From IMG/VR virus record IMGVR_UViG_3300042507_004023: a DNA stretch of 64,000 nucleotides, one strand, 5' to 3'. A program made the position numbers and the translations under genes. Shown here piece after piece: positions 1,438-33,304 of the stretch (the stretch's first letter is position 1; every line of letters starts with the position of its first letter). Origin of the DNA: a virus. Under the pieces are notes generated by a model. That model saw only the letters and a list, made by a program, of their open reading frames with translations, was not told the DNA's origin and searched no databases.

Positions 1438-3912
1438 TCAGAACTGGAAGAGAACCTTGATTTCCTCTCTCTGTTCAATATTTCTCTTGATTGGTTGCGT
1501 ATTCTGTATGTAGATAAGTTCACCGGAGCGATACAGGAGTTCTTCTTCGTGAACCACCGAGTTTACGAGACAATTTGCGGAACTTGACGCAGAATCTTTA
1601 AATTCTATCTGTGTTCCTGTGAATGTTCCTTTGACACCTGAAAGTCTCAAGGTTCCTGTTGTTGCTCCCACAGGGGAGAAAGACCACTCAACAACAAGTC
1701 CAGTTCCTTGGGTGGTTGCTCCTGTTATTCCCCGAACAGCAAAATCACTCGGGAAAGAAATTGTGGAGAATGGTTTAGCCTCAGTTGTAACAACCGTTAA
1801 AGTTGTGGTTTGATCGTATACTGAAACAGATTCTCGTGTAATTTCTCCAATATCCACAACTTTCGCTGTGGCTGAAACTCCTGTCGGGCCACCCAAAGTT
1901 GGGCGCATGTAGTAATCAGATTCCACCAAGTATTCAAACCGAGTTGGATATTTTGTTGGATCTTCAACATATAGAGTTCCCAATGCATTATTGCCTGGAG
2001 CGGTTTCCCACTTATTGATTATTCCCGTGAAACGAGAATTTGAAATATTATTCTGTCTGTTACCGATAGAATTTACCCACAAGCCTGGACGGAAATCTGA
2101 GCCGTCCATTCGGAACTCTGCGCCCGAAGCACCTGAAGCAGGCGAAATCTTTAGACGAAGAATTTCGCGTCCTTCGGTTCCAGCAACTGTTCTGCGATTT
2201 ATATCCAAGATTGTAAAGTTTCCGCTACTTGCCGCTCCTGTTGAAGAAGAAACAATTCCTCCACAAACAAATGCTCCTGATGTTATCGACTCAACAACAA
2301 GTTCGGATGTTCCGTTGTAACCACTAACCCCATCATTCCAAGAAACTATTCTTGCCGTTGCTGCGCTTAACCCTGTAGCACCATCAGCACCAGTTTTACC
2401 TTGTATTAGTGTTGCTCCACCTATAAAAGATCCAGACAAGCCCCATTGCTCTAGTCTAAATCTGGTTTGAGGTTTCTTTAATAGTGGGTTTTTTATAATA
2501 CCAAATTGGCGGTAGTCATTATTAACAGATAGTTTTTTTCGTTCATCTTGACTAAAATCAATCACAACCATTAACGCGGCTGCGCCCAATTCTTTTATGG
2601 CATTACTTCCATGCCCGCCCGGAGGAGACAGAACAATATTTGCAACATCGTTAATGTTTCCTGTTCCTGTGAATCCTGCTGCAAAGGTTAATCCCTTTAC
2701 AGATATAAAATTTGCTCTACTATATCCAGCACCAGTGTCAACCATTTCGAACGAATCAATCAAGGTCTGATTGTAAATGTTCGTTAGATTGCAGTTATCT
2801 CTAGAAGAAGTTACACCAGGCCCAAATTTAACGGTAATATCTGCCTCTTTAAATTTGTTTAGGTATGTTTCTCGTGAATTGCCGTCGCCTTCTATTCTGA
2901 TGTTTGGAACAATCGAAAACTTGCTAGAGTTTGCAGACAAACCAACAGTTAGAGGCTCATCTAAAGTAATTGTTCCGTAGTTACCTATGGCGGTGTAATT
3001 GTAGGTTTTGATTACACGGCGTTGCCCTTCACCAGCACCAGAATCTACCGAGAAAACTAGATCGTTATAAAAGCCATTTAGACCAATCAGATAAGGACTG
3101 TAAATTCTTATTGATCCTGTATAACCATTTGAATAGTTTTGCGAAATTGAGTTAGCATTATTCGGAGTTACACAGTTTACGGCAGTTAGATACGGACGGT
3201 ATTCTGCTCGCAGTTCTGTGAAAGCAATTTCTCCATCAATTGCGCTTTGTTGAACATTCCATTGTAGTGATCGTTCTTCATCAACAAGACGAAGATAATC
3301 CACATATTCAACAGGAATATATCCCTGCACAACAACTCTTTGAAATGCTGCGGTTGAACTTGAAGTTTCATCATATACAGTCTTTGTGATAAACTTTCTT
3401 TTGCTCTCTGGAATCATATACATGAATTTCCAGCGATATCCATCAGAAAGTTTACGAATTTCGGGATCGGTGTGTGTTGGTGCAACCGTGGATACAGAGT
3501 TATAATAGTTGTCTATGCACTTATAGACTCGGGTTTCATCAACAACCACATAAAATCTAACCGGATTTATAGGATCAAATAGATCGGAGTCGTAACGATA
3601 CGGCTCGTAAACAGATCCCAATTTCCAATCAAATCTTGGTATCACTAAAGAGGCGTTATCTTGGGTTAGCCGCTTTACAGCAACAACATTTTCCCAAAAT
3701 TCAGTTTCTGTATCGTCCGTATCGTTTGACACCGGAACGGAACTAGCATATGAGCCTGATATTCCATCTGAAATTTCTTCAGTTTTCCAAGGGTTTACTC
3801 TACCTATACTCAAGAAATAATTGTTTTCCGATGAAATCGAAAGATCTGAAAGCACCTTTTCTGAAAGGTGTCTTCTAAAATTTTGGCGTATTGGGGAGCA
3901 GGATGATGACAT
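1438..3912 (-). CDS. gp8: Baseplate wedge subunit gp8-like (824 aa)
   Basis: Motifs YFLSIGRVNPW, FYVVVDETRVYKCIDN, DGYRWKFMY, PPGGHGSNAIKELGA, NDYRQFGIIKNP, ELIYIQNTQPIKR; follows gp7. Confidence 0.85.
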   Translation of the reverse strand: MSSSCSPIRQNFRRHLSEKVLSDLSISSENNYFLSIGRVNPWKTEEISDGISGSYASSVPVSNDTDDTETEFWENVVAVKRLTQDNASLVIPRFDWKLGSVYEPYRYDSDLFDPINPVRFYVVVDETRVYKCIDNYYNSVSTVAPTHTDPEIRKLSDGYRWKFMYMIPESKRKFITKTVYDETSSSTAAFQRVVVQGYIPVEYVDYLRLVDEERSLQWNVQQSAIDGEIAFTELRAEYRPYLTAVNCVTPNNANSISQNYSNGYTGSIRIYSPYLIGLNGFYNDLVFSVDSGAGEGQRRVIKTYNYTAIGNYGTITLDEPLTVGLSANSSKFSIVPNIRIEGDGNSRETYLNKFKEADITVKFGPGVTSSRDNCNLTNIYNQTLIDSFEMVDTGAGYSRANFISVKGLTFAAGFTGTGNINDVANIVLSPPGGHGSNAIKELGAAALMVVIDFSQDERKKLSVNNDYRQFGIIKNPLLKKPQTRFRLEQWGLSGSFIGGATLIQGKTGADGATGLSAATARIVSWNDGVSGYNGTSELVVESITSGAFVCGGIVSSSTGAASSGNFTILDINRRTVAGTEGREILRLKISPASGASGAEFRMDGSDFRPGLWVNSIGNRQNNISNSRFTGIINKWETAPGNNALGTLYVEDPTKYPTRFEYLVESDYYMRPTLGGPTGVSATAKVVDIGEITRESVSVYDQTTTLTVVTTEAKPFSTISFPSDFAVRGITGATTQGTGLVVEWSFSPVGATTGTLRLSGVKGTFTGTQIEFKDSASSSANCLVNSVVHEEELLYRSGELIYIQNTQPIKRNIEQREEIKVLFQF

Positions 3913-3929
3913 ATTACCTATTATCTATA

Positions 3930-6900
3930 TTAAGTTAATTGATAGTTGAATTCCTTGACAGTTTCGCTGCCTGTAATAATGGCATTTGAAACATTTCGGA
4001 AGTATAGTTTGAGTCGATATACGCAATTTGTATTCGGATACTGATTTCCTCTCCAACTAAATGGACTTCCTACAGTTCCTCTACCCAAAGTTATTGCACC
4101 AGGCTCGCTGTTCGGATTGTCGGGATTTACGAACGGATATAGGATGTTTATGCTGTTGGCAGAGGTTGGGAAAGGCCCCACCGAAGCCATCTGATATTCC
4201 TTGCCTGTTTCATCCACCACAGACAAATCTGCCCAAAGACTTATTGCCGAGTAATACGAGAGGTATAGCAAGGTGGAAAGTCCTGCCAACTCGCCCGAAG
4301 AAATCAGAACCCCATCAAGTTGAATGTTCATGGATCGGCTACCAGGTTCACTATCAACCACATATTGAGTATCTGTGCTCCATTCCGGAATGTCTACCGA
4401 CTTTCCGTTTACAGTAACTACCTTGACTTGCGGGACAGGAGGAGTCAAAACTTCCTGATCTTTACAATTAAATTCGGGACCAACTGGCATTTCTAGGAAT
4501 GAACGAAGCGTTATCTTTCTGAATTCCGAATAGTCCACTCTAGAACCTAAAGTTGTAAGTGCAAGTATTGGGCCGTTATCTCCCGTTTCTCCCGAGGTTG
4601 ATCCGGTTTGACCTAATTCACAATTACAAGTTTCAACACAATATGTGTGATTTACTCGATACTCGGCATAACAATCTATGGGTAGACATTGACCGCAATT
4701 ATCGTATTCTTGTTGTGTTGGGCAATCGGCACACACATCGCACCCCTCAGAAACACATCCATTAGCAACACAATCCGAGCAACTTATAGATGGAGTGCAA
4801 CCGCAATCTCTACAGAAACTGTTGTTTATGCTGTATTGGTTGTCGCAATCTGATGGAGTGCATTGACTACACAGCGTGTAACTCTGTTCACAACCACAAG
4901 ACACACAGAACTCGTAATTAATTGAGGATGGATAATCGCAATCACCTTGCAAGCATTGGTTGCAGTTTGTGTATTTGCCAGGGCCATCGTAAATACACTC
5001 GTCACATTCCGTTCGGCAACGAATGCCATTACAATCATTTTTTACACACTCATCGCATAGAACTGTTGTTGGCACACAGCCACAGGTGTTTCTACAGAAT
5101 TTAGTATTAACTGTTATGCTATCACAGTCCAATTGAGTGCATTCTTCACAACTTGTGTAAATGGTTCCACAACCACAATCAACACAGAAATCATAATTTA
5201 AAGTTCCTACTGTGCAATCTGCTACTGTGCATTGTGAACACTTGGTATACTTTGTCTTGCAGCCCTCGCAGTTATAACAGCCCGAACAACCTGCACAATC
5301 GTAACTTCCTGTGATGCTGAAACAATCAAAAATTGGTGAGCAACAAGAGCAACCTGTGCAACCAGGATCTACTACCACAGCAGAACAACCCGTGCAACTG
5401 TGACAGCCTGAGCAGCCTGCACAATCATACATTCCGCTCACAATGTTGTAGCAGGGCAATCCTTCCCAAGTCGAGCAAGCCGCACATCCTGTTGGACCAG
5501 CAGATGCTCCTGTTATGGCACATCCTGTGCAACCACCAAATCCTGAACAACCCAAGCAGTCGTAAACACCCAAGAAAGTGTTCCAACATGCAAATCCATT
5601 AGCAGTAGTTCCGCAGCATAGAGCACCAGAACAAGTTGGGCCAGTTACAGGACATCCTGTGCATTGCCAGCAGCCAGAACAACCTTCACAATCATATCCT
5701 GTCGGAATATCCATTGTAAAACACGGATTAACTTGAGAACAACGATCACATCCTGTGGCTGGTGCTGTTACACCACAGCCTGTAAAGCCATAGCATCCTG
5801 AGCATCCTTCGCAATCTAGCAAACCTGTGATACGGTTATATCCTCCCGTCAAACAACATTCGCAGCCTGTGCATCCGCCTGTTACAGGACATCCTGTGCA
5901 CGAGAAGCACCCCGAGCATCCTTCGCAGTCATATAGACCTGTTACAATGTTGTAGCAACCGCCCGTCACGCTTGTTGAGCAGCAACCACAACCTGTGCAA
6001 CTAGTTGCTCCTGTGATAGAGCATCCTAGACAGCCCCAACAACCCGAGCAGCCTTGGCAATCGTAGAATCCATCAATTGTGAAGCATGGGTTTTCTTGAC
6101 TGCATAGAGCGCATCCTGTTAGACTTCCTGTTATACCGCAGCCCGTGCAACCGTTGAAGCCCGAGCATCCCACACAATCGTATATGCCTGTTACAATGTT
6201 GTAGCACAGAGTTCCACTGCCTGTGGTTCCGCAGCATGCCGTGCCACCTGAACCCGTGCAACTAGTTGCTCCTGCGGATACACCAGTGATACCACACCCT
6301 GTGCATCCAAAGCAACCCGAGCAGCCTTCACAATCGTAAAGATTTGTAGCCTTATTGAAGCAGCCACCCGTGCAGCACTCACAACCAATACAAGGAGTTG
6401 TTGTTGTGCAGCCCAAGCATCCAAAGCAGCCTGAGCAGCCTTCACAATCGTAAATTCCACTTAGAGTCCAGCAAGGAGCGTCCGAACGGCAAAGATTGCA
6501 TCCTGTTGCTCCTGTTGGGCCTTGAGGACATCCTGTGCATCCGTGGCAACCAGAACATCCTGCACAATCGTAAATACCGTCAACAGTATGGCAAAGGTTT
6601 ACAGAACTGCACAGAGCACATCCTGTTGCAGGAGCAGTTATACCGCATCCTGTGCATCCGAAGCATCCAGAGCATCCTTCGCAATCAAGCAGTCCTGTCA
6701 TTATGTTTAGACACGGGATACCAGGATGGCATGAATCGCAAGGATCTTGTGGAATAGATGGACATCCTGTGCAACCGCCAAGTCCTGAACATCCTTCACA
6801 ATCATAAACTCCCAAGAAAGTATTCCAACATGCGTTTCCGTTTGCTGTCGTTCCGCAACAACTTGGACCCGAGCAAGTTGGGCCTGTTGCAGGACATCCT

Positions 6901-9900
6901 GTGCAGCCTGGACAACCTGAACAGCCCAAACAGTCGTATAGTCCACCTAGTGTGAAGCAACCAAACTGACAACAATCGCATCCAGTGCAAGCCGTTGGGC
7001 CAGGATCTCCACCAAAAATATAAGCCCTGTCGATTTCATCGAATACAACAGGAACATAACCCATGTCTATTAGTTCTTTAATTACTGTTCCGCGAGCAAC
7101 ATCTCTGTCATTTGCTCGTGTTGGATCTCCTCCAAATCCTCGTAGAGCAGGATCGTTTGAGGAATACCAGTTGCAACCAACCCAAGTTTCGTGATCTGGT
7201 GTTAGATAGTTTGCCAAGCCAAATGACTTAGTTACATTTCGATTACCATTTGAGGCGTTAAACAAATCAAGATATGTTGCATCTTTTCTGTGCATGTAAT
7301 CAGAATTTCTACTCTCTGTAACATACTTTATTTGTCCCTCATATAGCGACAAATAAGAATTTCTAATTGACTCTGCACCTATGTAAGAAACCTCATTTGG
7401 GGCATTCGATGGATGCCAAGCATCCAATCCTATCATACCCTTTGAAACGCCTCTAGAATTTATAGTGATATTTGCGACTCTATCTAACTGATCGAGTATT
7501 AGTTGGTCATCGTATCCAGTCGATCCAAACGGATAAAGAGTTCCACCAAATTCGGTTTGATATTTCAATGAATTGCCAAACCAAAACCCGACTTGTTTAT
7601 CATCATCCAACGCATCTATCATAGATTTGAACAAAGAAACTCCATCATCCATATTATTTGTAATGGAGAATGTTGCACCTAATGGAGTAGTCCAAATTCT
7701 ATCAGGTTCGTCCCAATGCGAAACTGCTCTAACTGGATAATTTCCACTTGCTGCTGCTCCACTTGGAGTCCAAATCATAACACGATCCCAACCCTTTTTC
7801 TCTATCTGATCCTTAACATAATTTACAGGGCCAGACATACCAACCACATTTGGGTATCCTCCAGCCTGAGCAGATTTGGTTTGAATTGTATCCCAACCGT
7901 AAGGATTGTAATTAGAAGCGGTGGGACTAGAAAGGTTTACTAGGTGTTCATATCCAAAATGAACTCCTTTAACTGGTCTATAATCTGGAATATACGAATG
8001 CGGATACTTGGAGTCCAAGAAATCTTTATACACCGATAAAGTTTCAAACGCGGCAGCATCTTGTAAATTCACATCTTGTTCTATTAACGATTTTCCGCCA
8101 ATTAGATTCTGAGAAATCGGAATAGTGTTGAATTTAACAACCACTTTATAGGTTCTAGTTTCGCCTGCCGGTATTTTTGCAGAATCATACAATTGAGATT
8201 CGTTTTGTGTTGCAAATTGGAAACTATATCTATCAACATATGCCTTATAATTTTGATTTGCAGCAACACTCATCGCAACAGCCGGATTGTCTTGTGGCGG
8301 GAAAACTACAAGACTTATATCGTGACCGTAAACTTCTGGTTGATATCCAACAACAGACATACTTACAGCAAAATTGTTTTGCTCGCAACAAGCACCTTCA
8401 AACTTAGTTTTTGCGAGATGAATAGGAGAATACAAAATATCAGGATATCTTGCACTTTGAACAGAACCATTTCTGGTTATAGTTCTATAGGTTCCTATTG
8501 GGGATCCTGTTGCTCCATACAGTTTTGTATCGTAATATTCAATAGAATCACCCAAATTCAATGAAGGAGTGTCCAACCAATCTATGATTTTTTCTTCGCT
8601 GCAAGTGTTGGTATATGTGTAATTTACTTCCATTGTTCCGTCATTATCGTTTGTAATAACGGATATGTTTGGTTTGATTACCGAATTTGAACAATTTGAT
8701 GTTCCTGGTTTTGGTGGAGTCCACCCGTTGATAATGATTCTGTCACCAGGCCCATATGCATACCAAGAATCACCTATCACATCGTATTCAAAAGCAAAAT
8801 CTGTAGTTTTAGGATTGTTATACTTTTGATTCCAATAGTTTAGTGCGGCTTCGATTTGTGTATAATTTATTTTATCGGTAAGGGCGAAAACATTATCAAC
8901 TTCTGATTTACTGATTCTTGGGAAATCACCACTAACGCTAACATTACTTACAAGTTCGAATGTTGCACCTATAGCACCAAAACTAATAATATCTCCAGGG
9001 AATCCCAGGTTCACCCATCTTGGTCTTTGATTTGCGTAACTAGGATCTTTTTGTAGATCTAAAGCCTTTAGTTGTGCATCACCTGTAACTGGATTTGATG
9101 CTCCTAGACAGGTCGAATAAGGCGCATTTCCACTAGTAAATCCGTGAGTTGCACCATCAACTCCCCAATATCCCGTATCAGTTCTTGAGCCGAATGGGAC
9201 AGCGGGAGTCCAAAGGGCTACATCGTTACCAGCCTCTTGGGTAAATTGTGGTTGCCCTACAAAGAAGAAAGGCTCAACACCAATTTCAACAGTGTTTGCA
9301 TCAATCGCTTGAACTCGCTTAACATATCCTATACGATCCGCAGTGTTCCAACCTTTGTCTTGATATGATCGACCGTCAGGGTAAGAAAATACGGTGGCGG
9401 ATCCTGTTAACGAATTAAATAACGGATTTGAAATAATGTCTCCGGTTACTCCCACACCGTCACGAGATCTTATTGGAGTAGACGATAACGGATTTACTGT
9501 TCTGTAATTAAACGCAAAAGTTGTGCCTGGAGCCATGCTTAAATTTACAGAGTTTGCTCCGTTAGCAGAGAATTTCTTTATTCTGAATGTGTATTCTTTT
9601 ATACTGCCCCATTCAGGCAAATCTCTAGTTTTCTCAAAGAAAGATGGATATTTGGTTTTTAGATAAGCATACTTTTCTGGTTTGTCAAACACAAATTGAG
9701 CACCAGTTTGTCCTGTCATGCCATCAAGGAAGGCTTCATACGATAGTAAATTCATACGAGCCTGAGTTTTGGGAGTTTTGCCAGTCAATCTTGCAGGAGC
9801 GGATGCTGTTGGCCAAACCGGAGCCAAAGATCCTCCCCACCAAGGATTTCCTCCCTGTTTTCCACTTGTAATCAACCATGATACACGCGGTTTACCATTA

Positions 9901-12900
9901 AGCCCAATAGGAACTCCTGGTCCTGTTGGTGCTCCTGGTCTTAACGCTTCTCCACCAGCAAAATCCCAATATGGCTCAAATCCATAAGAAACGGTTAATG
10001 GATTTAGTTTCCAATCAATAACTGATCCATCGGCTCCAGTAATTTCAATGGTTCTTGGATTTGGAGAACTAATGGCGCATCCCCACTTTTTGGTGTAGGT
10101 ATCGTCTCCAGACCACAGATAGAACCCGTGAACTGAGCCTTTTGGATTACCCGACAAAGAACCTTCAATATACAGATTAACAAATTCTGATGGACTAAAG
10201 AAAGATCCGTCTTGTATTGATGGGGCTACTGCTCCGTATCCGCCACTTCCAGTTCCAACAGTATACGCTTTATTTGAAATGAACGGGATAATTAGCACAT
10301 TATCGTATCCCTTTTCTGCTGCAATTTCTTGCCGCCATTTAACCATTTCGGTTATGGTCAAATTTTGCAGGGCTTTTTCTGCTGCTATATTTTCTGTGGC
10401 AACATAAAAACTAGGCATCCACACATTAACATTTCTTGCATAATTCGTCCATTGTTCTTTCCACAGTTTTAAAGCGTGGTCACGATACTTGGTTCCGAAT
10501 CTAACATCCAAAATACCTAATCCGCTTGCTTTTGATGATTGGGGATCGTTAGTATCCAAAGTATCTCTGCCGTCCCAACGGCAATCGGGGCATGTTGGTG
10601 AAGGCACATAACTCTTATAATCAACGGACTTGCCATCAATTATTCTTGTTAAGGTTTCAAACTTTGAACTTCTAGCGTCTCCACTAAATCCTGGATAATC
10701 GTGATATTTCAAAATGTTTCTTGGAACTGCGTATGGCTGCCCGTAGTTTGCAAACAGGGCGTTTGGAAATTTTTGTTGCAATCCGTCAAAAGTTAGTCCA
10801 TCCGCACCAGTTCCACCAACAAATATCGGAATCATATACTTGTTCATTATAAAATTGCCGACCGAATTTGGATCATCTGGATTTGCTCGTCCTACACTGC
10901 TAGAAAAAATTGGATCCCAGGTTTCATTATTCATTGCGATCAGATTGTCATACTCGAAAGTGTAACGATTATCCCCTAAACGCAAAGTTCCTGCGCCAGA
11001 AATTCCATTCCAGTCTGGCTTAATATCTCCAAGCAAAGACGAGACAAATTTATCCATTGCTGCTTTAGAGGTATTTGTAAGCCCGTGTGTTCCTGCAACT
11101 ATACCTTTAAAAGCACCAACTTTAGGATAATGGCTGCTTGCTTCTGAATCCCAATTTGTGAATCGGTTGTATTGTAGTGTGATGTTATCCGCGTAAGATG
11201 TTTTATCTTCAGAAGTGTCTGAATTATTCAAGTTCTTTGCCAATGGGCTTAAAGAACCAATTGCCTTTACGGTTTGTGTTTCATCAATTCCAATCACTTC
11301 TCCGTTTTCATTTCTCAAGTAATAATCCAAAGTAATATCTGTTCCTGTAGACAGATTTTTTTGAGGGGTTAGATTTGAAACACTCTTGCTATTATCAGTC
11401 TTTAGTTTTTCTAGATCCTTATATCCTTGAAGAGTGAAAACATTATCATAATAAATTTTTGGCAAAAATGCGGATTGTCCTACAAGTTTATTTTGAGGAG
11501 TCAAAAACTCTTGAACAGATTGTGGTTCATAGTAGGTTTGAGTATACGGTTTAACTGGATTGTAATTCAGGGTTACATATCGTTCTCCTGAAGTGAATCC
11601 TGTCGCCCAATCTGTTCGATTTGCGGTGCTACCTTCTGTCCACTCTGCCCAATAGCCAGTATAACCGCTATTATTAGAAGAAATTCCAAAAGGAAACTCT
11701 CTGCCTGCTCCCAAATCATTCAAGAATTCGTTCTTTAGATCGTAAGGAATTCTAGCCGTAACTGAACCACGAATCTTGCGATTCGGGTGCTGATATACGA
11801 TCCAGAAAGGATCTGCGTTTTGAAAGTTTGCTGTTCTCAGAGGAACTAGAGGATTTTGGAATGCTCGGTTAAATGTTACGGGATTTCCTATAGACTTTAA
11901 ATATTCCTTTGAGGAAATTCCATCAAGCCCCGCAAGAGCAACATCACCGAAATCTATTATCCCGTTTTCATCAAGATCATTTCTTATAATCTGATTGTGA
12001 ACTGTTGGATCGTAGCCAGCCAAAAGTCCTGTGTTTGGATCCGTAAACCAGTTTGAAAGATCGTCGTAAGTTTTGAATGTATACGGTGCGTAGTGACCAA
12101 TAATCGGCACTTCGTATTCCACAAGAGATGTGCTGTTCTGCAAATCTGCAACAGCGCAACGCTTAATTTGAACTTTACCAAAGAACGCAAGACCTGCTGG
12201 ATTTAAAAGTCTCTTTAAAACATCACGATAACGATCAACAGTAACTTCACTTAAAATAACATATGAAAAGTTTTGATAGTAATGATTGTCTTGAATAACT
12301 TTATTGGTGCTTAATCTGCCGTCGTTGTTGGCGTAATAACCTTGGTATTCCGCCATTCCATTAACAGTAACAGAACCAACAAATCCGGTTCCTGCTTCAG
12401 ATTCAATTGTTATTGCGGGAGCAACCTTGTAATTAACACCATAATTATCAATCAAAATTTTTCTGATTTTACCCAAAGCGTCAACTTCAGCAACACGAGC
12501 AGAGGCTTTAACACCAGTATCTCCTTCAGCAGAGGCAAAAATAACACGATCTCCTGCTTTATACCCGCTTCCGCCGTTTGTTATTGTGATTTTTCCAATA
12601 ACAGAGAAAACTCGGTTTTCTTTACGCAAAATACCAGTTTTGTCTGTAAATTCTATGCCATCATAGCCTGCCGCAAATTGACCATTTACTCCACCCAAGA
12701 AAAGTTCAGCAATATCATTAGTTCCAACTCGATATGTGCTAACTTCAATGACTCGTCCACTTGCAGCAATATCTCCGTTCGCATCTCGTTGAACTACTGT
12801 TGCGCCAATAGAATCAAAAATAGCATTTCCTATATTGTTACTCGTCTTTATAGAACGACGGACAACCCACTTTCCGTCTGAAAGTTTCATAATATCATTC

Positions 12901-13292
12901 TTGGGATAATAGAATTCTACGGAAGTATCAAACAGAATTCTAAACAAGAAATCGTAGGTTTTTTCGGTTCCTTTTGCTCGGTAAAATCCCTTGATGTTTT
13001 TCATCAATTTTACAGGATCTACAGGCTTTTTGGTTGTCTCGGATACCGCTAGTTTTTCTGGAAACCCAAGAAGATATTCATTCTTAAAATATGAAATGAA
13101 TTCTTCTAGTGTAGAGTCAACATCAATAACGCTAGCAAGTTTCTTTGGAGATCGTAGGAAGGTGTTATCCGAATCTAACCACTCATAGTAAGCCGTAAGA
13201 AAAGCAACCAGAGTTGGATGGTCAACCCTTACAAATTCTGGTAATTGTCCTGCTATGAATGGTGATGTAGGATTAAAGTTTTTGTCTGTCAT
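3930..13292 (-). CDS. gp7: Giant gp7-like baseplate wedge initiator (3120 aa) with large inserted domains and Cys-rich repeats
   Basis: N-terminus QLPEFVRVDHPTLVAFLTAYYEWL...KNIKGFYRAKGTEKTYDFLFRILF and GRLSTNKVIQDNHYYQNFSYVI...LLNPAG match gp7-type proteins; lies between gp6 and gp8; single uninterrupted ORF. Confidence 0.8.
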   Translation of the reverse strand: MTDKNFNPTSPFIAGQLPEFVRVDHPTLVAFLTAYYEWLDSDNTFLRSPKKLASVIDVDSTLEEFISYFKNEYLLGFPEKLAVSETTKKPVDPVKLMKNIKGFYRAKGTEKTYDFLFRILFDTSVEFYYPKNDIMKLSDGKWVVRRSIKTSNNIGNAIFDSIGATVVQRDANGDIAASGRVIEVSTYRVGTNDIAELFLGGVNGQFAAGYDGIEFTDKTGILRKENRVFSVIGKITITNGGSGYKAGDRVIFASAEGDTGVKASARVAEVDALGKIRKILIDNYGVNYKVAPAITIESEAGTGFVGSVTVNGMAEYQGYYANNDGRLSTNKVIQDNHYYQNFSYVILSEVTVDRYRDVLKRLLNPAGLAFFGKVQIKRCAVADLQNSTSLVEYEVPIIGHYAPYTFKTYDDLSNWFTDPNTGLLAGYDPTVHNQIIRNDLDENGIIDFGDVALAGLDGISSKEYLKSIGNPVTFNRAFQNPLVPLRTANFQNADPFWIVYQHPNRKIRGSVTARIPYDLKNEFLNDLGAGREFPFGISSNNSGYTGYWAEWTEGSTANRTDWATGFTSGERYVTLNYNPVKPYTQTYYEPQSVQEFLTPQNKLVGQSAFLPKIYYDNVFTLQGYKDLEKLKTDNSKSVSNLTPQKNLSTGTDITLDYYLRNENGEVIGIDETQTVKAIGSLSPLAKNLNNSDTSEDKTSYADNITLQYNRFTNWDSEASSHYPKVGAFKGIVAGTHGLTNTSKAAMDKFVSSLLGDIKPDWNGISGAGTLRLGDNRYTFEYDNLIAMNNETWDPIFSSSVGRANPDDPNSVGNFIMNKYMIPIFVGGTGADGLTFDGLQQKFPNALFANYGQPYAVPRNILKYHDYPGFSGDARSSKFETLTRIIDGKSVDYKSYVPSPTCPDCRWDGRDTLDTNDPQSSKASGLGILDVRFGTKYRDHALKLWKEQWTNYARNVNVWMPSFYVATENIAAEKALQNLTITEMVKWRQEIAAEKGYDNVLIIPFISNKAYTVGTGSGGYGAVAPSIQDGSFFSPSEFVNLYIEGSLSGNPKGSVHGFYLWSGDDTYTKKWGCAISSPNPRTIEITGADGSVIDWKLNPLTVSYGFEPYWDFAGGEALRPGAPTGPGVPIGLNGKPRVSWLITSGKQGGNPWWGGSLAPVWPTASAPARLTGKTPKTQARMNLLSYEAFLDGMTGQTGAQFVFDKPEKYAYLKTKYPSFFEKTRDLPEWGSIKEYTFRIKKFSANGANSVNLSMAPGTTFAFNYRTVNPLSSTPIRSRDGVGVTGDIISNPLFNSLTGSATVFSYPDGRSYQDKGWNTADRIGYVKRVQAIDANTVEIGVEPFFFVGQPQFTQEAGNDVALWTPAVPFGSRTDTGYWGVDGATHGFTSGNAPYSTCLGASNPVTGDAQLKALDLQKDPSYANQRPRWVNLGFPGDIISFGAIGATFELVSNVSVSGDFPRISKSEVDNVFALTDKINYTQIEAALNYWNQKYNNPKTTDFAFEYDVIGDSWYAYGPGDRIIINGWTPPKPGTSNCSNSVIKPNISVITNDNDGTMEVNYTYTNTCSEEKIIDWLDTPSLNLGDSIEYYDTKLYGATGSPIGTYRTITRNGSVQSARYPDILYSPIHLAKTKFEGACCEQNNFAVSMSVVGYQPEVYGHDISLVVFPPQDNPAVAMSVAANQNYKAYVDRYSFQFATQNESQLYDSAKIPAGETRTYKVVVKFNTIPISQNLIGGKSLIEQDVNLQDAAAFETLSVYKDFLDSKYPHSYIPDYRPVKGVHFGYEHLVNLSSPTASNYNPYGWDTIQTKSAQAGGYPNVVGMSGPVNYVKDQIEKKGWDRVMIWTPSGAAASGNYPVRAVSHWDEPDRIWTTPLGATFSITNNMDDGVSLFKSMIDALDDDKQVGFWFGNSLKYQTEFGGTLYPFGSTGYDDQLILDQLDRVANITINSRGVSKGMIGLDAWHPSNAPNEVSYIGAESIRNSYLSLYEGQIKYVTESRNSDYMHRKDATYLDLFNASNGNRNVTKSFGLANYLTPDHETWVGCNWYSSNDPALRGFGGDPTRANDRDVARGTVIKELIDMGYVPVVFDEIDRAYIFGGDPGPTACTGCDCCQFGCFTLGGLYDCLGCSGCPGCTGCPATGPTCSGPSCCGTTANGNACWNTFLGVYDCEGCSGLGGCTGCPSIPQDPCDSCHPGIPCLNIMTGLLDCEGCSGCFGCTGCGITAPATGCALCSSVNLCHTVDGIYDCAGCSGCHGCTGCPQGPTGATGCNLCRSDAPCWTLSGIYDCEGCSGCFGCLGCTTTTPCIGCECCTGGCFNKATNLYDCEGCSGCFGCTGCGITGVSAGATSCTGSGGTACCGTTGSGTLCYNIVTGIYDCVGCSGFNGCTGCGITGSLTGCALCSQENPCFTIDGFYDCQGCSGCWGCLGCSITGATSCTGCGCCSTSVTGGCYNIVTGLYDCEGCSGCFSCTGCPVTGGCTGCECCLTGGYNRITGLLDCEGCSGCYGFTGCGVTAPATGCDRCSQVNPCFTMDIPTGYDCEGCSGCWQCTGCPVTGPTCSGALCCGTTANGFACWNTFLGVYDCLGCSGFGGCTGCAITGASAGPTGCAACSTWEGLPCYNIVSGMYDCAGCSGCHSCTGCSAVVVDPGCTGCSCCSPIFDCFSITGSYDCAGCSGCYNCEGCKTKYTKCSQCTVADCTVGTLNYDFCVDCGCGTIYTSCEECTQLDCDSITVNTKFCRNTCGCVPTTVLCDECVKNDCNGIRCRTECDECIYDGPGKYTNCNQCLQGDCDYPSSINYEFCVSCGCEQSYTLCSQCTPSDCDNQYSINNSFCRDCGCTPSISCSDCVANGCVSEGCDVCADCPTQQEYDNCGQCLPIDCYAEYRVNHTYCVETCNCELGQTGSTSGETGDNGPILALTTLGSRVDYSEFRKITLRSFLEMPVGPEFNCKDQEVLTPPVPQVKVVTVNGKSVDIPEWSTDTQYVVDSEPGSRSMNIQLDGVLISSGELAGLSTLLYLSYYSAISLWADLSVVDETGKEYQMASVGPFPTSANSINILYPFVNPDNPNSEPGAITLGRGTVGSPFSWRGNQYPNTNCVYRLKLYFRNVSNAIITGSETVKEFNYQLT
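4620..5258 (-). repeat. Coding Cys-rich repeat family II in gp7: 7 modules of 6 Cys
   Basis: Five long modules such as YTKCSQCTVADCTVGTLNYDFCVDCGC and YTNCNQCLQGDCDYPSSINYEFCVSCGC, plus two short ones (LCDECVKNDCNGIRCRTECDEC; SCSDCVANGCVSEGCDVCADC). Confidence 0.9.
5259..6989 (-). repeat. Coding Cys-rich repeat family I in gp7: 14 modules with core [Y/L]DCxGCSGCxxCTGC
   Basis: 14 copies counted in the translation; 120 Cys in 577 aa. Confidence 0.95.
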
Positions 13293-13300
13293 GGCTCATA

Positions 13301-15253
13301 TTAATACGGGAATGGTGCGCCAGTTTGCTGATTGATTGTGGGAACCGAGTCGAGTTCCACATTAAAATTTGATTTACTGTAGTCCAAAACTATGATTTGA
13401 TTACGCAAAGACTGTATATCGGATTTTTGAGGAATAACGGTTATTTTTATTTCAGAATCGGTTCTTGGTTCAATGTATTGTGGGTTGAAGTTATTTAGTG
13501 TGATGATACCAGTATTATAATTTATCTTGCCTATTTTGGTGTTGATATACACCTTAGTGGTTCCTTCAATTTTATAAATTCTGATATTACCGTAACCGTC
13601 GTCGTCAAGATAAGCATCAACGACCGGCTTAACTACCGCTGCGTTTGTTTGATCTTGGTATCCAAAAGCGGACGAGGAAACAATAGAAGTAAATCCGTCT
13701 ATAGGATGAAGTAAAGGATTATTAAATCGAATAGTATATGGAGAAGGTTTACCTAAAAATGGTTCAATTCTCTTTTGCAGACGAATTGAAAGATTAGTTC
13801 CTGTGATGGATTTGTTTGAATTGTCTACCAAAGAAGACAGTTTGGATGCCTTGAAATTTCTACCAAACTTGTCCAAATTTGCGGTTTCAAACGATTCAAC
13901 TGCCAGTTTAATTTGAGCGGCAAGTCCTGCGGGGCTTAAATTTGTTCTAGACGGATCGTAAGCGGAAAGAGAGTCAATTTCCAGATAAATGTAATCAGGA
14001 TCCACAATTTCTGGTTGAATTGTGACTAGATTTCTTTTGCCCAATACACTCTTTTGAATGGCTAGTTTTTCAAGAATTCCTATCTTGCTTCCATTCTTGG
14101 GCTTGATTGATATGAAAACTTTACCGTATTGTGGCGGATCATTTTCTTCCCCACCCCACACAAAGAATGAATCCACGCCTTCGCTGAACTCTTTTACCAA
14201 TATGGTTTTATAATCTTCAACTGTTACTGCTCGTTCTTGAGCCTGATAATTTCTTGGCGCGTAATACTTGATTGATTCAATGCTTTCTGGTAAGGTTCCA
14301 CCATAAGAAACAGTTGGATTCCCGTCCGGATCTGAGATGGTGGATACGCCATACGATGGAGATCCAGTTGAATCCACCTTTTGAACATATGGTGCTAGCA
14401 CTCCAGAAACATAGGAGAAAGTTCTGCAATTATTTGCAAGTTCTCCGTTTGTAAGCAGATACTCCACGCTAATCACATTTCCATTTTCTAGGGCTTTGCC
14501 TACTATCCCGTCTCCGAAGTAAATTTCAAAATTTCCATCCTCGGTTTCTTGCAAGAAATACACTAGCGAATCCGAGTTTAGCCCATTCACATCAGTTGCT
14601 TTGTTCCATATGTTTATCAGTCCTGTTGTATCTGTTACTGACTTTTGGATTCGGACTCTTAGAGTATCCACATCAATATTATTACTTGGAAGAATGAATC
14701 GTTGGGTTGGGTCAAAAGAATTTACAACAAAGGTGTATGTTCTGAGAGTTCCCTCATAAGCCTTAACATTCTTAACTGTAGCAATTCCACCAATCATATC
14801 CACTTTGTAATCATCCAAAACAACAAAGTTAAAGAAACGATTTCCTGGCAGGGTTGCTCGGAAAATATCACCTCGGTTAACAAAGGCATTACCTTTTCTT
14901 ACACGATCCTCGACCGTTTCTCCATTGGTGTTTGTTATAGTTTGTGTTCCAAATTTAACATCCAAAAATATCTTGGAGGCTTTAACCGATCTTGGTGTAT
15001 ACCCTAGTTGCTTGGCAATAGAAACTGTGCTTGAACGAAGAGCGGACGAATCCAAAAAGGCTTCATTCGCAACCATGTTTGCATAAAACGACTGGTAGTG
15101 TGTGTTGTAAGCAAGAAGATCTAGTATGATGTTCATACCCGATCCTTCAAAATCAAAATCTTTAAACTGATCTTGAGAACGAAGATAGGTCTTCAGGTTT
15201 GACTTTATTGCATCAAAGTCTAGGCCGTCAATTCTTAGGTTGGTGTTGCTCAT
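13301..15253 (-). CDS. gp6: Baseplate wedge subunit gp6
   Basis: LDFDAIKSNLKTYL..QDQFKDFDFEGSGMNIILDLLAYNTHY; AQERAVTVEDY; WGGEENDPPQYGKVFISIKP; DDDGYGNIR. Confidence 0.95.
   Translation of the reverse strand: MSNTNLRIDGLDFDAIKSNLKTYLRSQDQFKDFDFEGSGMNIILDLLAYNTHYQSFYANMVANEAFLDSSALRSSTVSIAKQLGYTPRSVKASKIFLDVKFGTQTITNTNGETVEDRVRKGNAFVNRGDIFRATLPGNRFFNFVVLDDYKVDMIGGIATVKNVKAYEGTLRTYTFVVNSFDPTQRFILPSNNIDVDTLRVRIQKSVTDTTGLINIWNKATDVNGLNSDSLVYFLQETEDGNFEIYFGDGIVGKALENGNVISVEYLLTNGELANNCRTFSYVSGVLAPYVQKVDSTGSPSYGVSTISDPDGNPTVSYGGTLPESIESIKYYAPRNYQAQERAVTVEDYKTILVKEFSEGVDSFFVWGGEENDPPQYGKVFISIKPKNGSKIGILEKLAIQKSVLGKRNLVTIQPEIVDPDYIYLEIDSLSAYDPSRTNLSPAGLAAQIKLAVESFETANLDKFGRNFKASKLSSLVDNSNKSITGTNLSIRLQKRIEPFLGKPSPYTIRFNNPLLHPIDGFTSIVSSSAFGYQDQTNAAVVKPVVDAYLDDDGYGNIRIYKIEGTTKVYINTKIGKINYNTGIITLNNFNPQYIEPRTDSEIKITVIPQKSDIQSLRNQIIVLDYSKSNFNVELDSVPTINQQTGAPFPY
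13492..13499 (-). promoter_or_regulatory. Possible internal late promoter ACTAAATA for gp7
   Basis: Matches the window's late motif ~200 nt upstream of the gp7 start, but lies inside gp6 coding sequence and could be chance. Confidence 0.35.
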
Positions 15254-15639
15254 CGTGTCCTCTCTAACAGTATATTGGTTTCCAAAACTTGGGGTCTATT
15301 TGCGATTGTAAACTTGATGTTTAAGGTGACTGAGTTTTTGTCAGGCTCCGCATAAAAACCAACGGCTAGATTATTTACTCGGGGTTCATATTTTCGTATT
15401 AGTTCTTCAATTTGCCCTTGCAATACACTATAAACAACGGGGCTAGGATTTTCAAACAGTAAATCTTGAATGCCTGAAGACACTTCGGGATGAAATGGCT
15501 TTTCAAATCTACGAAGCAAAATCAAATTTCTAAGACTTCTTTTAACAGCATCCTCATTGATTTTGATGGTTACATCTCTATCAATATAATTTGGCTGAAA
15601 GTTCAGGTCTAAATCAATGAAATAGTTTTTACTTGCCAT
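15250..15639 (-). CDS. gp25: Baseplate wedge subunit gp25
   Basis: DLDLNF...NEDAVKRSLRNLIL..RFEKPFHPE..SGIQDLLFE...IRKYEPRV...LERTR. Confidence 0.93.
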   Translation of the reverse strand: MASKNYFIDLDLNFQPNYIDRDVTIKINEDAVKRSLRNLILLRRFEKPFHPEVSSGIQDLLFENPSPVVYSVLQGQIEELIRKYEPRVNNLAVGFYAEPDKNSVTLNIKFTIANRPQVLETNILLERTR

Positions 15640-16274: not shown

Positions 16275-16577
16275 TTACCCTCCTCCACAGTAAACATTAC
16301 TGCTTCCTCTTGCCATTGCGGAACCACAACCCACAGGGTCGCCTATACGCATTCCCTGACGACTATTCACAAAAACTTGAGAAGATCCTTTTACACTGAT
16401 GGAAATATGAATGGGATGATCGTCATCGCATCCGTGGGCATGGGGCCCTAATCCATCGTATTGACGATGCCAACCTTTGCTGTTTACAAATACATTGTTC
16501 GACCAAGCGATAACTTGGCGTGGTGGGTGGCAATCGTGCCCGCTACAAATATCCCCTCGTGTGCTTACTCCAGGCAT
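16275..16577 (-). CDS. gp5.4: PAAR spike-tip protein (gp5.4-like)
   Basis: RGDICSGHDCHPP, VFVN, RIGDPVGCGS...GSSNVY with His/Cys metal ligands; downstream of gp5. Confidence 0.92.
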   Translation of the reverse strand: MPGVSTRGDICSGHDCHPPRQVIAWSNNVFVNSKGWHRQYDGLGPHAHGCDDDHPIHISISVKGSSQVFVNSRQGMRIGDPVGCGSAMARGSSNVYCGGG

Positions 16578-23694: not shown

Positions 23695-24156
23695 ATAGGA
23701 ACCTACAGAACATATAAAGGGTTCTACAAACCCCAAAACCCAAGCAAGTATAAAGGCGATCCCACCAACTGCGTATACCGCTCACTTTGGGAACGCAGAT
23801 TTATGCAATACTGTGATTTAACGGAATCGGTTACGGCTTGGGCTTCTGAGGAGGTTGTAGTTCCTTACATCTCTCCTATAGATGAAAAGGTTCACCGCTA
23901 CTTTGTGGACTTTTGGATTAAAACTGTGAACTTGGACGGCAAGGAAGAGTGCTTTTTGATAGAAATCAAACCAAAAAAGAGAACAGTTAAGCCCGAACTT
24001 CAAGGCAAAAAGATGACTCAAGGCAGACTAAACGAGGTTAGAGAGTGGATGATAAACACTAGTAAGTGGGAAGCCGCTGAACGATTTTGTGAATCTCGTG
24101 GGTGGAAGTTTAAAGTGCTTACAGAAAACGAAATATTTGGGCCCAAAACCGCATGA
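23695..24156 (+). CDS. gp4: Head completion protein gp4 (probable non-canonical ATA start)
   Basis: YKGFYKPQNPSKYKGDP..CVYRSLWERRFMQYCD...WASEEVVVPYISP.D.K.HRYFVDF. The conserved N-terminus lies upstream of the tracked ATG 23803; in-frame TAA at 23674. Confidence 0.85.
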   Translation: MGTYRTYKGFYKPQNPSKYKGDPTNCVYRSLWERRFMQYCDLTESVTAWASEEVVVPYISPIDEKVHRYFVDFWIKTVNLDGKEECFLIEIKPKKRTVKPELQGKKMTQGRLNEVREWMINTSKWEAAERFCESRGWKFKVLTENEIFGPKTA

Positions 24157-32116: not shown

Positions 32117-32368
32117 TCAATAATCTCTCATGGTGTTTCTAGGATGCGCTTTCTTTATTTTTGAAATAACATCCTTGAAACCACCGTCAGGTCTTGTGAT
32201 ACCTAGACGCACAGGATCAATCACTTGAATCGCTGCATCTAGTTTGATAACTTTCTTCTTTCCGCACTTCGGGCAAGGCTTCTTGGTAGGCTTGTTTCGA
32301 TTTGCAATGGTTTGAAAATCGTCCCACACATGCTCGCATGCGTTGCATTTATAATCGTATAGAGGCAT
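32117..32368 (-). CDS. FmdB-family zinc-ribbon protein
   Basis: MPLYDYKCNACEH...CPKCG; GFKDVISKIKKAHP. Confidence 0.85.
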   Translation of the reverse strand: MPLYDYKCNACEHVWDDFQTIANRNKPTKKPCPKCGKKKVIKLDAAIQVIDPVRLGITRPDGGFKDVISKIKKAHPRNTMRDY

Positions 32369-32377
32369 TCGGTATCC

Positions 32378-32385
32378 TATTTATA
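32378..32385 (-). promoter_or_regulatory. Canonical late promoter TATAAATA upstream of the FmdB-exonuclease-gp33 block
   Basis: Exact consensus 9 nt before ATG 32368. Confidence 0.7.
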
Positions 32386-33304
32386 ACACTTGTCCTATTA
32401 TACTACGATATTCAAACAATGCAAGATCTTTTGCTTTGGCTTCAATCATTACATCATAGGGCGTATTGCCCAAGTCTGGTATGCGTTGTTTAATGTAGTC
32501 GGAGTGTGCTTGAGGTCGCTTGCCTTCCGCAGATTCCGAATAGTGAATCTTTGGAATTTCACAAAACCCACCCCATGTGGAAAACGCCATATCAGCCGCT
32601 TCTTGCAAAGACTCTTTAGCACAAAATCTGTGGTGATGAATATCCAATACTAGTTTCACGGTGCAATACTTTGCAACCTGCTTCAGTAGATCGGTCATAC
32701 TCCACATGGAAGCCTTGTCGTCGTTCTCTAAGGTCAATCGTTTTTTAGTATGATCGGGCAATTTAGAAAAGTTTGCTAGAAACCTTTCTGCGGTTTCATG
32801 CTTGCCTTCATACACACCACCCATATGAATGTTTATAGCAAACTCGTCACCGTATCCCAACAGATCGCCAATCAGAGAGTGCATCTCAAGTGAAACGATA
32901 GACTTCCTGACAATTTCAAGGTTAGGACTAGCCAAACAAGTGTATGGGCCAGGATGACACGATAGACGAATGCCTGCGGCTTTAGCAATTCTGCCTGCTT
33001 CTGTGAAATTTCTTGTGATACTTTCCTGATGATCTTCTCGCAGATGCCGCAAAGCATAGCCAATAGTCATATGATCCATGAACGGAAACATTTCGCTGCT
33101 GACACGAAACATCTTGATATTGTTATCGGCATTCCATTGCATGATCTTGACAAGATCGGCAGCATTCTTTGCTGCCAGATCGCCACAGCGTTCCAAACTA
33201 AAGTTGGACATCCGCAAGGTTCTGCTTGTGGTGATCTGATCTTTCTTTTTCAAGCCTTGATTCATCGTTAGATTTACACAGGCGTATCCGATATTGCGTA
33301 TCAT
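32381..33304 (-). CDS. uvsE: UV-damage endonuclease (UvsE/UVDE)
   Basis: IGYACVN, SRTLR, FRVSSEMFP, RLSCHPGPYTCLASP, INIHMGG, RLTLENDD, LDIHHH, KIHYSE, HSD, DVMIEAKAKD. Start revised to ATG 33304 (GGAG upstream). Confidence 0.93.
   Translation of the reverse strand: MIRNIGYACVNLTMNQGLKKKDQITTSRTLRMSNFSLERCGDLAAKNAADLVKIMQWNADNNIKMFRVSSEMFPFMDHMTIGYALRHLREDHQESITRNFTEAGRIAKAAGIRLSCHPGPYTCLASPNLEIVRKSIVSLEMHSLIGDLLGYGDEFAINIHMGGVYEGKHETAERFLANFSKLPDHTKKRLTLENDDKASMWSMTDLLKQVAKYCTVKLVLDIHHHRFCAKESLQEAADMAFSTWGGFCEIPKIHYSESAEGKRPQAHSDYIKQRIPDLGNTPYDVMIEAKAKDLALFEYRSIIGQVL

Follow-up and report, generated by a model that had tools for sequence, protein, structure and literature searches.

A tandem cysteine-rich module with pairwise gain and loss of cysteines in a giant predicted baseplate wedge protein of an uncultured T4-like phage

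A giant baseplate gene with two cysteine-rich arrays

We examined a stretch of viral DNA of 64,000 nucleotides (IMG/VR record IMGVR_UViG_3300042507_004023; "the window" hereafter means this whole stretch) and focused on a single open reading frame (ORF) of 9363 nucleotides on the minus strand, which encodes a protein of 3120 amino acids (aa), P0001. Residues 2102-2678 of this protein, encoded at 5259-6989, consist of 14 tandem cysteine (Cys) modules, here called the type-A array. Across homologous modules the cysteines were gained and lost in fixed pairs, a pattern suggesting that the members of each pair are probably disulfide partners.

The type-A array contained 120 Cys, 117 Gly and 66 Thr in 577 aa. 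The core motif D-C-x-G-C-S-G-x5-G-C was found exactly 14 times and delimited as many modules, 32-52 aa long and holding 8 or 10 Cys each; these counts of cysteines and modules, already given in the original prediction, all held when we recounted them on the translated interval. Its finer details were likewise reproduced: the third core Cys is missing from modules 2, 7 and 12, which have four Cys upstream; in module 10 the fourth core Cys is lost together with the one that precedes YN; modules 2 and 12 are near duplicates (86% identity); and G-x-T is frequent in the linkers. The same protein had 12 Cys in the ~2330 aa that lie outside its two Cys arrays, and every other likely gene in the window had 0-7 Cys; the enrichment is local and far beyond chance.

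Directly after the type-A array, and outside the interval covered by the original prediction, we found a second and different array (type-B). It is Gly-poor and consists of seven units with the pattern CxxC-x4-C ... C-x2-C-x-C, two of the seven being a shorter variant, and all 42 of its Cys were invariant in 8 homologues. For the type-A modules, we labelled the five upstream Cys columns U1-U5 and the five core columns K1-K5 and distinguished four classes: class A with all 10 Cys, class B without U1 and U3, class C without U2 and K3, and class D without U5 and K4 (Table 1).

Table 1. Features of the giant ORF and of the neighbouring baseplate genes (window coordinates).
Feature	Coordinates	Strand	Basis or remark
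Whole ORF P0001, predicted giant baseplate wedge protein in gp7 position	3930..13292	-	open frame; PF23786; phrog_17744; full-length homologues P0003-P0005
N-terminal baseplate-wedge domain, residues 7-411	12060..13274	-	BLASTP to BUCT-ZZ01 protein; Pfam and PHROG matches
Type-A array, 14 Cys modules, residues 2102-2678, 120 Cys	5259..6989	-	translation; core-motif count
Module 1	6894..6989	-	class A
Module 2	6762..6893	-	class C
Module 3	6645..6761	-	class B
Module 4	6528..6644	-	class B; P0004/P0005 orthologue also without U5 and K4, giving 6 Cys
Module 5	6408..6527	-	class B
Module 6	6294..6407	-	class A; class D in P0004/P0005
Module 7	6138..6293	-	class C; longer Gly-rich insert
Module 8	6021..6137	-	class B
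Module 9	5889..6020	-	class A; structure-prediction target
Module 10	5775..5888	-	class D; 6-Cys form in P0004/P0005
Module 11	5652..5774	-	class B
Module 12	5520..5651	-	class C; 86% identical to module 2
Module 13	5385..5519	-	class B
Module 14	5259..5384	-	class A
Type-B array, 7 units of ~30 aa, 6 Cys each (42 Cys), residues 2685-2891	4620..5240	-	adjoins type-A array
C-terminal domain, ~229 aa, mostly beta	3933..4619	-	no Pfam, PHROG or phage match; AF2 pLDDT 40; weak Ig-like look-alikes in ESM Atlas
gp8-like baseplate wedge gene, downstream of the ORF	1438..3912	-	phrog_438; faint match to PF09215
gp6-like baseplate wedge gene, upstream of the ORF	13301..15253	-	phrog_219, E=9.5e-173; PF21379
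gp25-like gene	15250-15639		baseplate cluster

Pairwise gain and loss of cysteines

We extracted 120 modules from 10 homologous sequences, the full set present in the databases searched. All ten Cys were present in 30 of them, U1 and U3 were missing from 51, U2 and K3 from 26, and U5 and K4 from 8, which leaves 8 Cys in each of the last three patterns; another 4 modules lacked U1, U3, U5 and K4 (6 Cys), and a single one lacked U1, U3 and K4, with an odd count of 7. Thus, 119 of the 120 modules hold 6, 8 or 10 Cys at the ten module positions. Counted by pair, U1 and U3 were both present in 64 modules and both absent from 56, and U2 and K3 were both present in 94 and both absent from 26, with no module in which either partner stood alone; U5 and K4 were both present in 107 and both absent from 12, with one module having U5 only and none K4 only. 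The remaining four positions, U4, K1, K2 and K5, were invariant. The strict pairwise gain and loss that had been proposed from the 14 window modules was therefore upheld in the larger alignment, with 0, 0 and 1 mixed cases. The odd module results from a single TGC-to-AGC change in the metagenome contig L009 (1-4599), where the same gene has an in-frame stop inside module 13, and this contig is either an assembly error or a decaying gene copy.

Since the modules are paralogous and the homologues close, these raw co-occurrence counts overstate the evidence. We built a module tree with the six variable Cys columns masked, a weak tree of ~34 columns, on which U1 and U3 changed 5 times each and every time on the same branch, U5 and K4 shared 3 of 3-4 changes, and U2 and K3 changed once, together; positions that are not partners shared no change. 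Orthologous comparison by itself showed two clear events: module 4 of the full-length homologues P0004 and P0005 is otherwise like module 4 of the window and has lost U5 and K4, and their module 10 has lost U1 and U3, which leaves 6 Cys. Module 6 of the same two proteins resembles a partial conversion from module 10, so we did not count it as an independent event. P0004 and P0005 also carry one extra Cys just before module 1, which would be unpaired unless bonded elsewhere.

The residues that take the place of lost cysteines were patterned as well. Replacement of U5 by Gly accompanied replacement of K4 by Phe in 12 of 12 cases, and replacement of U2 by Ala, Thr, Gly or Pro accompanied replacement of K3 by Phe, Tyr or Leu in 25 of 26. 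As judged from these sequence comparisons, the U1/U3 and U5/K4 pairings are well supported, and the proposed U2/K3 pairing rests on one event plus the pattern of replacement residues.

Distribution of the module

A profile of the module searched against 1.84 billion representative proteins recovered only 2 proteins, both from the same phage lineage; a search of 5.8 billion proteins gave 4 homologues of near-full length and 1 shorter one, and scans of IMG/VR and metagenomes added a few further contigs. Most homologues have 14 modules and L002 has 18, which suggests that the length of the putative stalk varies through module duplication. In this close relative (L002, 8747-13567, plus strand), the extra modules are mostly of the class without U1 and U3.

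Neither array gave a tblastn match in 50,697 phage records, a search in which the low-complexity filter may hide weak hits. The 577-aa type-A array matched no Pfam family, and no zinc-finger model, at E values up to 10, and a search of PDB sequences with it returned nothing meaningful. In PHROG there were two weak matches, probably compositional (phrog_36982, 24 bits; phrog_28263, 15 bits). By these searches, together with the fold searches described below, the module appears to be novel and confined to one phage lineage.

The module profile also detected, in each of 2 related viral records, one extra copy outside the gp7-like gene. This copy has the full 10 Cys and ends an insert of 28 or 26 Cys in the tail-collar region of a fibre protein of 1730-1770 aa (L022, 669-5975, minus strand; L023, 1322-6505, minus strand). 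The fibre is collagen-like: at its start there are 8 Cys in ~32 aa, followed by (Gly-Ala-Thr)n collagen-like runs, and short Cys pairs follow the collagen run. The two inserts differ by two Cys, so parity is kept in this second protein too. The module thus appears, on sequence grounds, to be mobile, with one copy in a second virion protein of related phages.

Placement of the gene in the baseplate cluster

The N-terminal part of the 3120-aa protein matched Pfam Baseplate_wedge (PF23786) over residues 82-138 with 44.3 bits, above the curated cutoff of 27, and phrog_17744 over residues 6-270 (E=9.4e-58). Residues 7-411 were 30% identical (BLASTP, E=1e-54) to a 607-aa protein that follows gp6 in Synechococcus phage BUCT-ZZ01. 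Upstream of the ORF lie gp6-like, gp25-like, PAAR and gp5-like genes, and downstream a gp8-like gene. The order gp25, gp6, 3120-aa gene, gp8 is that of the T4-like baseplate cluster, and with a gp6-like gene upstream and a gp8-like gene downstream our gene holds the gp7 position. The gene is real and conserved, and its product is, as predicted from domain content and gene order, a baseplate wedge protein; the baseplate location first proposed for the modules is thus supported by both the Pfam match and the flanking genes.

Downstream of residue ~411 the protein continues with ~1700 aa of middle domains, the 14-module array, the seven-unit 6-Cys array and the terminal domain. No homology was found for the C-terminal 229 aa in Pfam, in PHROG or by tblastn against the phage records. 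The AlphaFold2 (AF2) model of this domain reached a predicted local distance difference test (pLDDT) score of 40 and was unusable, and the ESM Atlas offered only immunoglobulin (Ig)-like look-alikes with template modelling (TM) scores below 0.5. Since homology is limited to residues 7-411 and does not resume at the C-terminus, we read everything past residue ~411 as a C-terminal extension. The possibility that the long part is an insertion inside gp7 was dropped for the same reason. In one homologue (L001, 12422-13345; L008, 12371-13294) the C-terminal domain exceeds 308 aa and reaches the end of the locus, as against a stop at 221 aa; the distal end of the protein is therefore variable.

The major capsid protein was ~60% identical to those of pelagimyophage HTVC008M, Melnitz phages and cyanomyoviruses, and megablast of the 3120-aa gene against the 50,697 phage records found no match at the DNA level; the source is, by its sequences, an uncultured T4-like myovirus. 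Among other genes of the window, a PAAR-motif protein of 100 aa with 5 Cys (16275-16577, minus strand) is encoded between the gp5-like spike gene region and the gp25-like gene. The window also contains a gene for the UV-damage endonuclease UvdE (32381-33304, minus strand) and one with a TnsA-like endonuclease N-terminal domain (23803-24156, plus strand).

Disulfides or metal sites

The loss of fixed pairs and the even Cys counts are what is found in disulfide-rich mini-domains, and we consider it probable that the three covarying pairs are disulfide partners, the best-supported reading of these data. Zinc ribbons and DnaJ-type domains would be expected to lose cysteines as CxxC knuckles and in sets of four. 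Here, U1 was lost without U2 and U2 without U1, K3 and K4 were lost singly relative to their CxxC neighbours, so that the co-lost pairs split CxxC motifs, and the modules hold 6, 8 or 10 Cys. Moreover, His, Asp or Glu occupied none of the 189 cells in which a Cys was replaced. Counts of 6, 8 and 10, split CxxC motifs, the lack of ligand swaps and contact-type replacements together argue against Cys4 metal sites at the variable positions. A true zinc ribbon, a small protein encoded at 32117-32368 of the window, was recognised at once by Pfam; the search is thus able to detect one, yet it found nothing in the array.

This evidence bears on the six covarying cysteines. For them the original preference for disulfides over 4-Cys metal sites is supported; the four invariant ones carry no covariation signal and could form a zinc site. 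The main rival is accordingly a mixed module, in which the invariant four would bind one structural zinc that nucleates folding in the cytoplasm, with the three dispensable pairs added later as accessory disulfides. In its favour, all 120 modules share exactly four invariant positions, a CxxC among them, a zinc core would account for folding of the module inside a reducing cell, and the 6-Cys modules would then be one zinc site plus one pair. We nevertheless regard this arrangement as unlikely: no Pfam zinc-finger model matched at E values up to 10, His was never found at a Cys position or substituting for one, and invariance is itself uninformative either way.

That every cysteine is a metal ligand, so that the array would store or use metal on the virion as a metal-thiolate fibre of the zinc-knuckle, Fe-S or metallothionein-like kind, seems very improbable. 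The very high Cys density and the 64 occurrences of CxxC in the type-A array would suit it, but 6 or 10 Cys cannot be divided into sets of four, and losses come by twos rather than fours and split the CxxC knuckles. The ferredoxin motif CxxCxxCxxxCP of 4Fe-4S sites occurs 0 times in the type-A array. Aromatic residues are rare or absent in metallothioneins, whose Cys number is under no parity constraint, unlike this array with its 42 aromatics in 577 aa, some of them conserved, and parity in 119 of 120 modules; the absence of His and Asp substitutions speaks against metal ligands here too. Metal sites shared between neighbouring modules were rejected, as the loss of a pair in one module was unmatched by any change in its neighbour. 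Least probable are other cross-links, namely lanthionine-type thioethers with conserved Ser and Thr or inter-chain disulfides between neighbouring stalks: Ser and Thr are indeed conserved beside the core Cys and phage Pam3 uses inter-subunit disulfides, but thioethers impose neither an even Cys number nor the joint loss of two Cys, the window showed no dehydratase or cyclase, and the co-lost partners lie within one module, with no correlated change in neighbouring modules.

Structure prediction gave limited help. An AF2 model of module 9 with a 72-module alignment reached pLDDT 66 and contained short strands only, and the other four models scored ~50. With the low-confidence model of module 9, neither Foldseek against the PDB nor VIA-align wide found a fold match, and no match to epidermal growth factor (EGF), laminin-EGF or tumour necrosis factor receptor (TNFR) modules was obtained by Pfam, PDB sequence searches or, using the same model, Foldseek and VIA-align wide. 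The likeness to mucin, von Willebrand factor and protozoan coat proteins suggested by the original prediction is thus one of analogy only, with neither a sequence nor a fold match in these searches.

We also searched for an enzyme that could form disulfides. A motif scan combined with Pfam on 10 Cys-containing ORFs detected no thiol oxidase within the 64 kb. Thioredoxin profiles found nothing in four related viral fragments (7-34% complete); an Erv/ALR profile found nothing in the same fragments either, but it also missed every control genome and is uninformative.

Several points weigh against disulfides, or against the stalk built on them. A CxxC is among the four invariant Cys, on which covariation is silent and which could make up a Cys4 zinc site. 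Neither the window nor the related fragments showed a gene for a thiol oxidase or a thioredoxin-fold protein, and ~81 disulfides per chain from a reducing cytoplasm are a real mechanistic difficulty. The homologues are close (59-94% identity in the C-terminal domain), so independent events are few; the U2/K3 pairing has a single event in the tree, and the tree of ~34 columns is itself weak. The single-module AF2 model reached only pLDDT 66. Finally, stalk geometry and chain stoichiometry are suggested by analogy only.

Proposed architecture and implications

On the disulfide reading, the type-A array would be 14 tandem, small, independently folding mini-domains, each stabilised by 3-5 disulfides. 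The candidate bonds are U1-U3, U2-K3 and U5-K4; for the invariant U4, K1, K2 and K5 we propose two more disulfides, with a single zinc site as a possible alternative. Pairing of every Cys would give 60 + 21 = 81 cystines over the two arrays. Together, they would most likely form a long, stiff, protease-resistant spacer of ~800 aa that links the wedge domain and the ~1700 aa of middle domains to the distal C-terminal domain of ~229 aa. By analogy with EGF-type arrays, such a stalk may be tens of nm long and would hold the distal domain off the baseplate, giving it reach plus mechanical or chemical robustness. T4 gp7 is present in one copy per wedge in T4 structures, where it makes up the trifurcation core with gp6; one chain per wedge, by analogy, would give six stalks per baseplate. 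The cysteines would stay reduced during synthesis in the cytoplasm and then be oxidised after lysis in oxic water, or through a yet-unfound oxidase.

A broader picture, which we offer tentatively and hold with rather less than even confidence, is that this lineage uses an orphan Cys module to equip one baseplate protein with ~80 structural disulfides, and its collagen-like tail fibre with further ones, independently of any secretory or periplasmic route of folding. Oxidative maturation of the virion would in that case follow lysis or depend on an unrecognised phage oxidase, and zinc might hold the thiols up to the moment of release.

Should the pairs prove to be cystines, the disulfide architecture would be denser than any yet proposed for a tailed-phage protein, and would be a bacterial-virus counterpart, independently arrived at, of the extracellular EGF- and TNFR-type rods of animals. 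It would raise the question of how a protein from a reducing cytoplasm gains ~80 correct disulfides. Stalk stiffness and infectivity would depend on the redox state of the water, which predicts redox-sensitive infectivity in natural waters. The 40-residue module, with three putative optional disulfides mapped by natural variation, could also serve structural studies and protein engineering as a compact new scaffold. Were it to bind zinc instead, the virion surface would carry a new metal-binding repeat.

Comparison with known systems

The closest relatives are the T4 gp7-type wedge proteins (PF23786), among them large wedge or structural proteins of T4-like cyanophages, pelagiphages and rhizobiophages, with which the protein shares homology over the N-terminal ~400 aa and the placement between gp6-like and gp8-like genes. 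The PHROG families matched commonly have long and variable additions at the C-terminus; however, neither Cys array was found by tblastn in any gp7-type relative from cultured phages among the 50,697 records, and the BUCT-ZZ01 counterpart has only 607 aa against 3120 aa here.

Cys4 zinc modules, such as zinc ribbons and the DnaJ CxxCxGxG domain, resemble the phage module in their many CxxC motifs, in having Gly next after Cys, in their small size and in being compatible with folding in the cytoplasm. They differ in that the phage module has no Pfam match to them, its covariation cuts across CxxC, and its Cys number 6, 8 or 10.

Laminin-type EGF, integrin I-EGF, TNF-receptor and Giardia VSP CxxC repeats are modules of ~40 aa with 6-10 paired Cys that stack head-to-tail into stiff stalks. 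Individual disulfides are optional between their subtypes, as they would be here. The analogy is one of function only: none of our sequence, profile and fold searches matched them to the phage module, a core with Cys at every third residue, each preceded by Gly, is not the EGF or TNFR pattern, and the phage protein is made without a secretory pathway, unlike these eukaryotic rods.

The only relevant work that we found in the literature on Cys-rich phage fibres concerns the freshwater cyanophage Pam3, whose baseplate has functional, dithiothreitol (DTT)-sensitive disulfides and releases its fibres on DTT treatment (PMC9942802). Pam3 uses a handful of single Cys that bridge subunits, in contrast to the ~81 intrachain cystines proposed here, and the proteins have no sequence relation. 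In both cases, though, if our reading holds, the integrity of a myovirus baseplate would depend on disulfides in a virion assembled in the bacterial cytoplasm, as published for Pam3 (PMC9942802); with this precedent, baseplate disulfides are less unexpected than the original prediction had stated.

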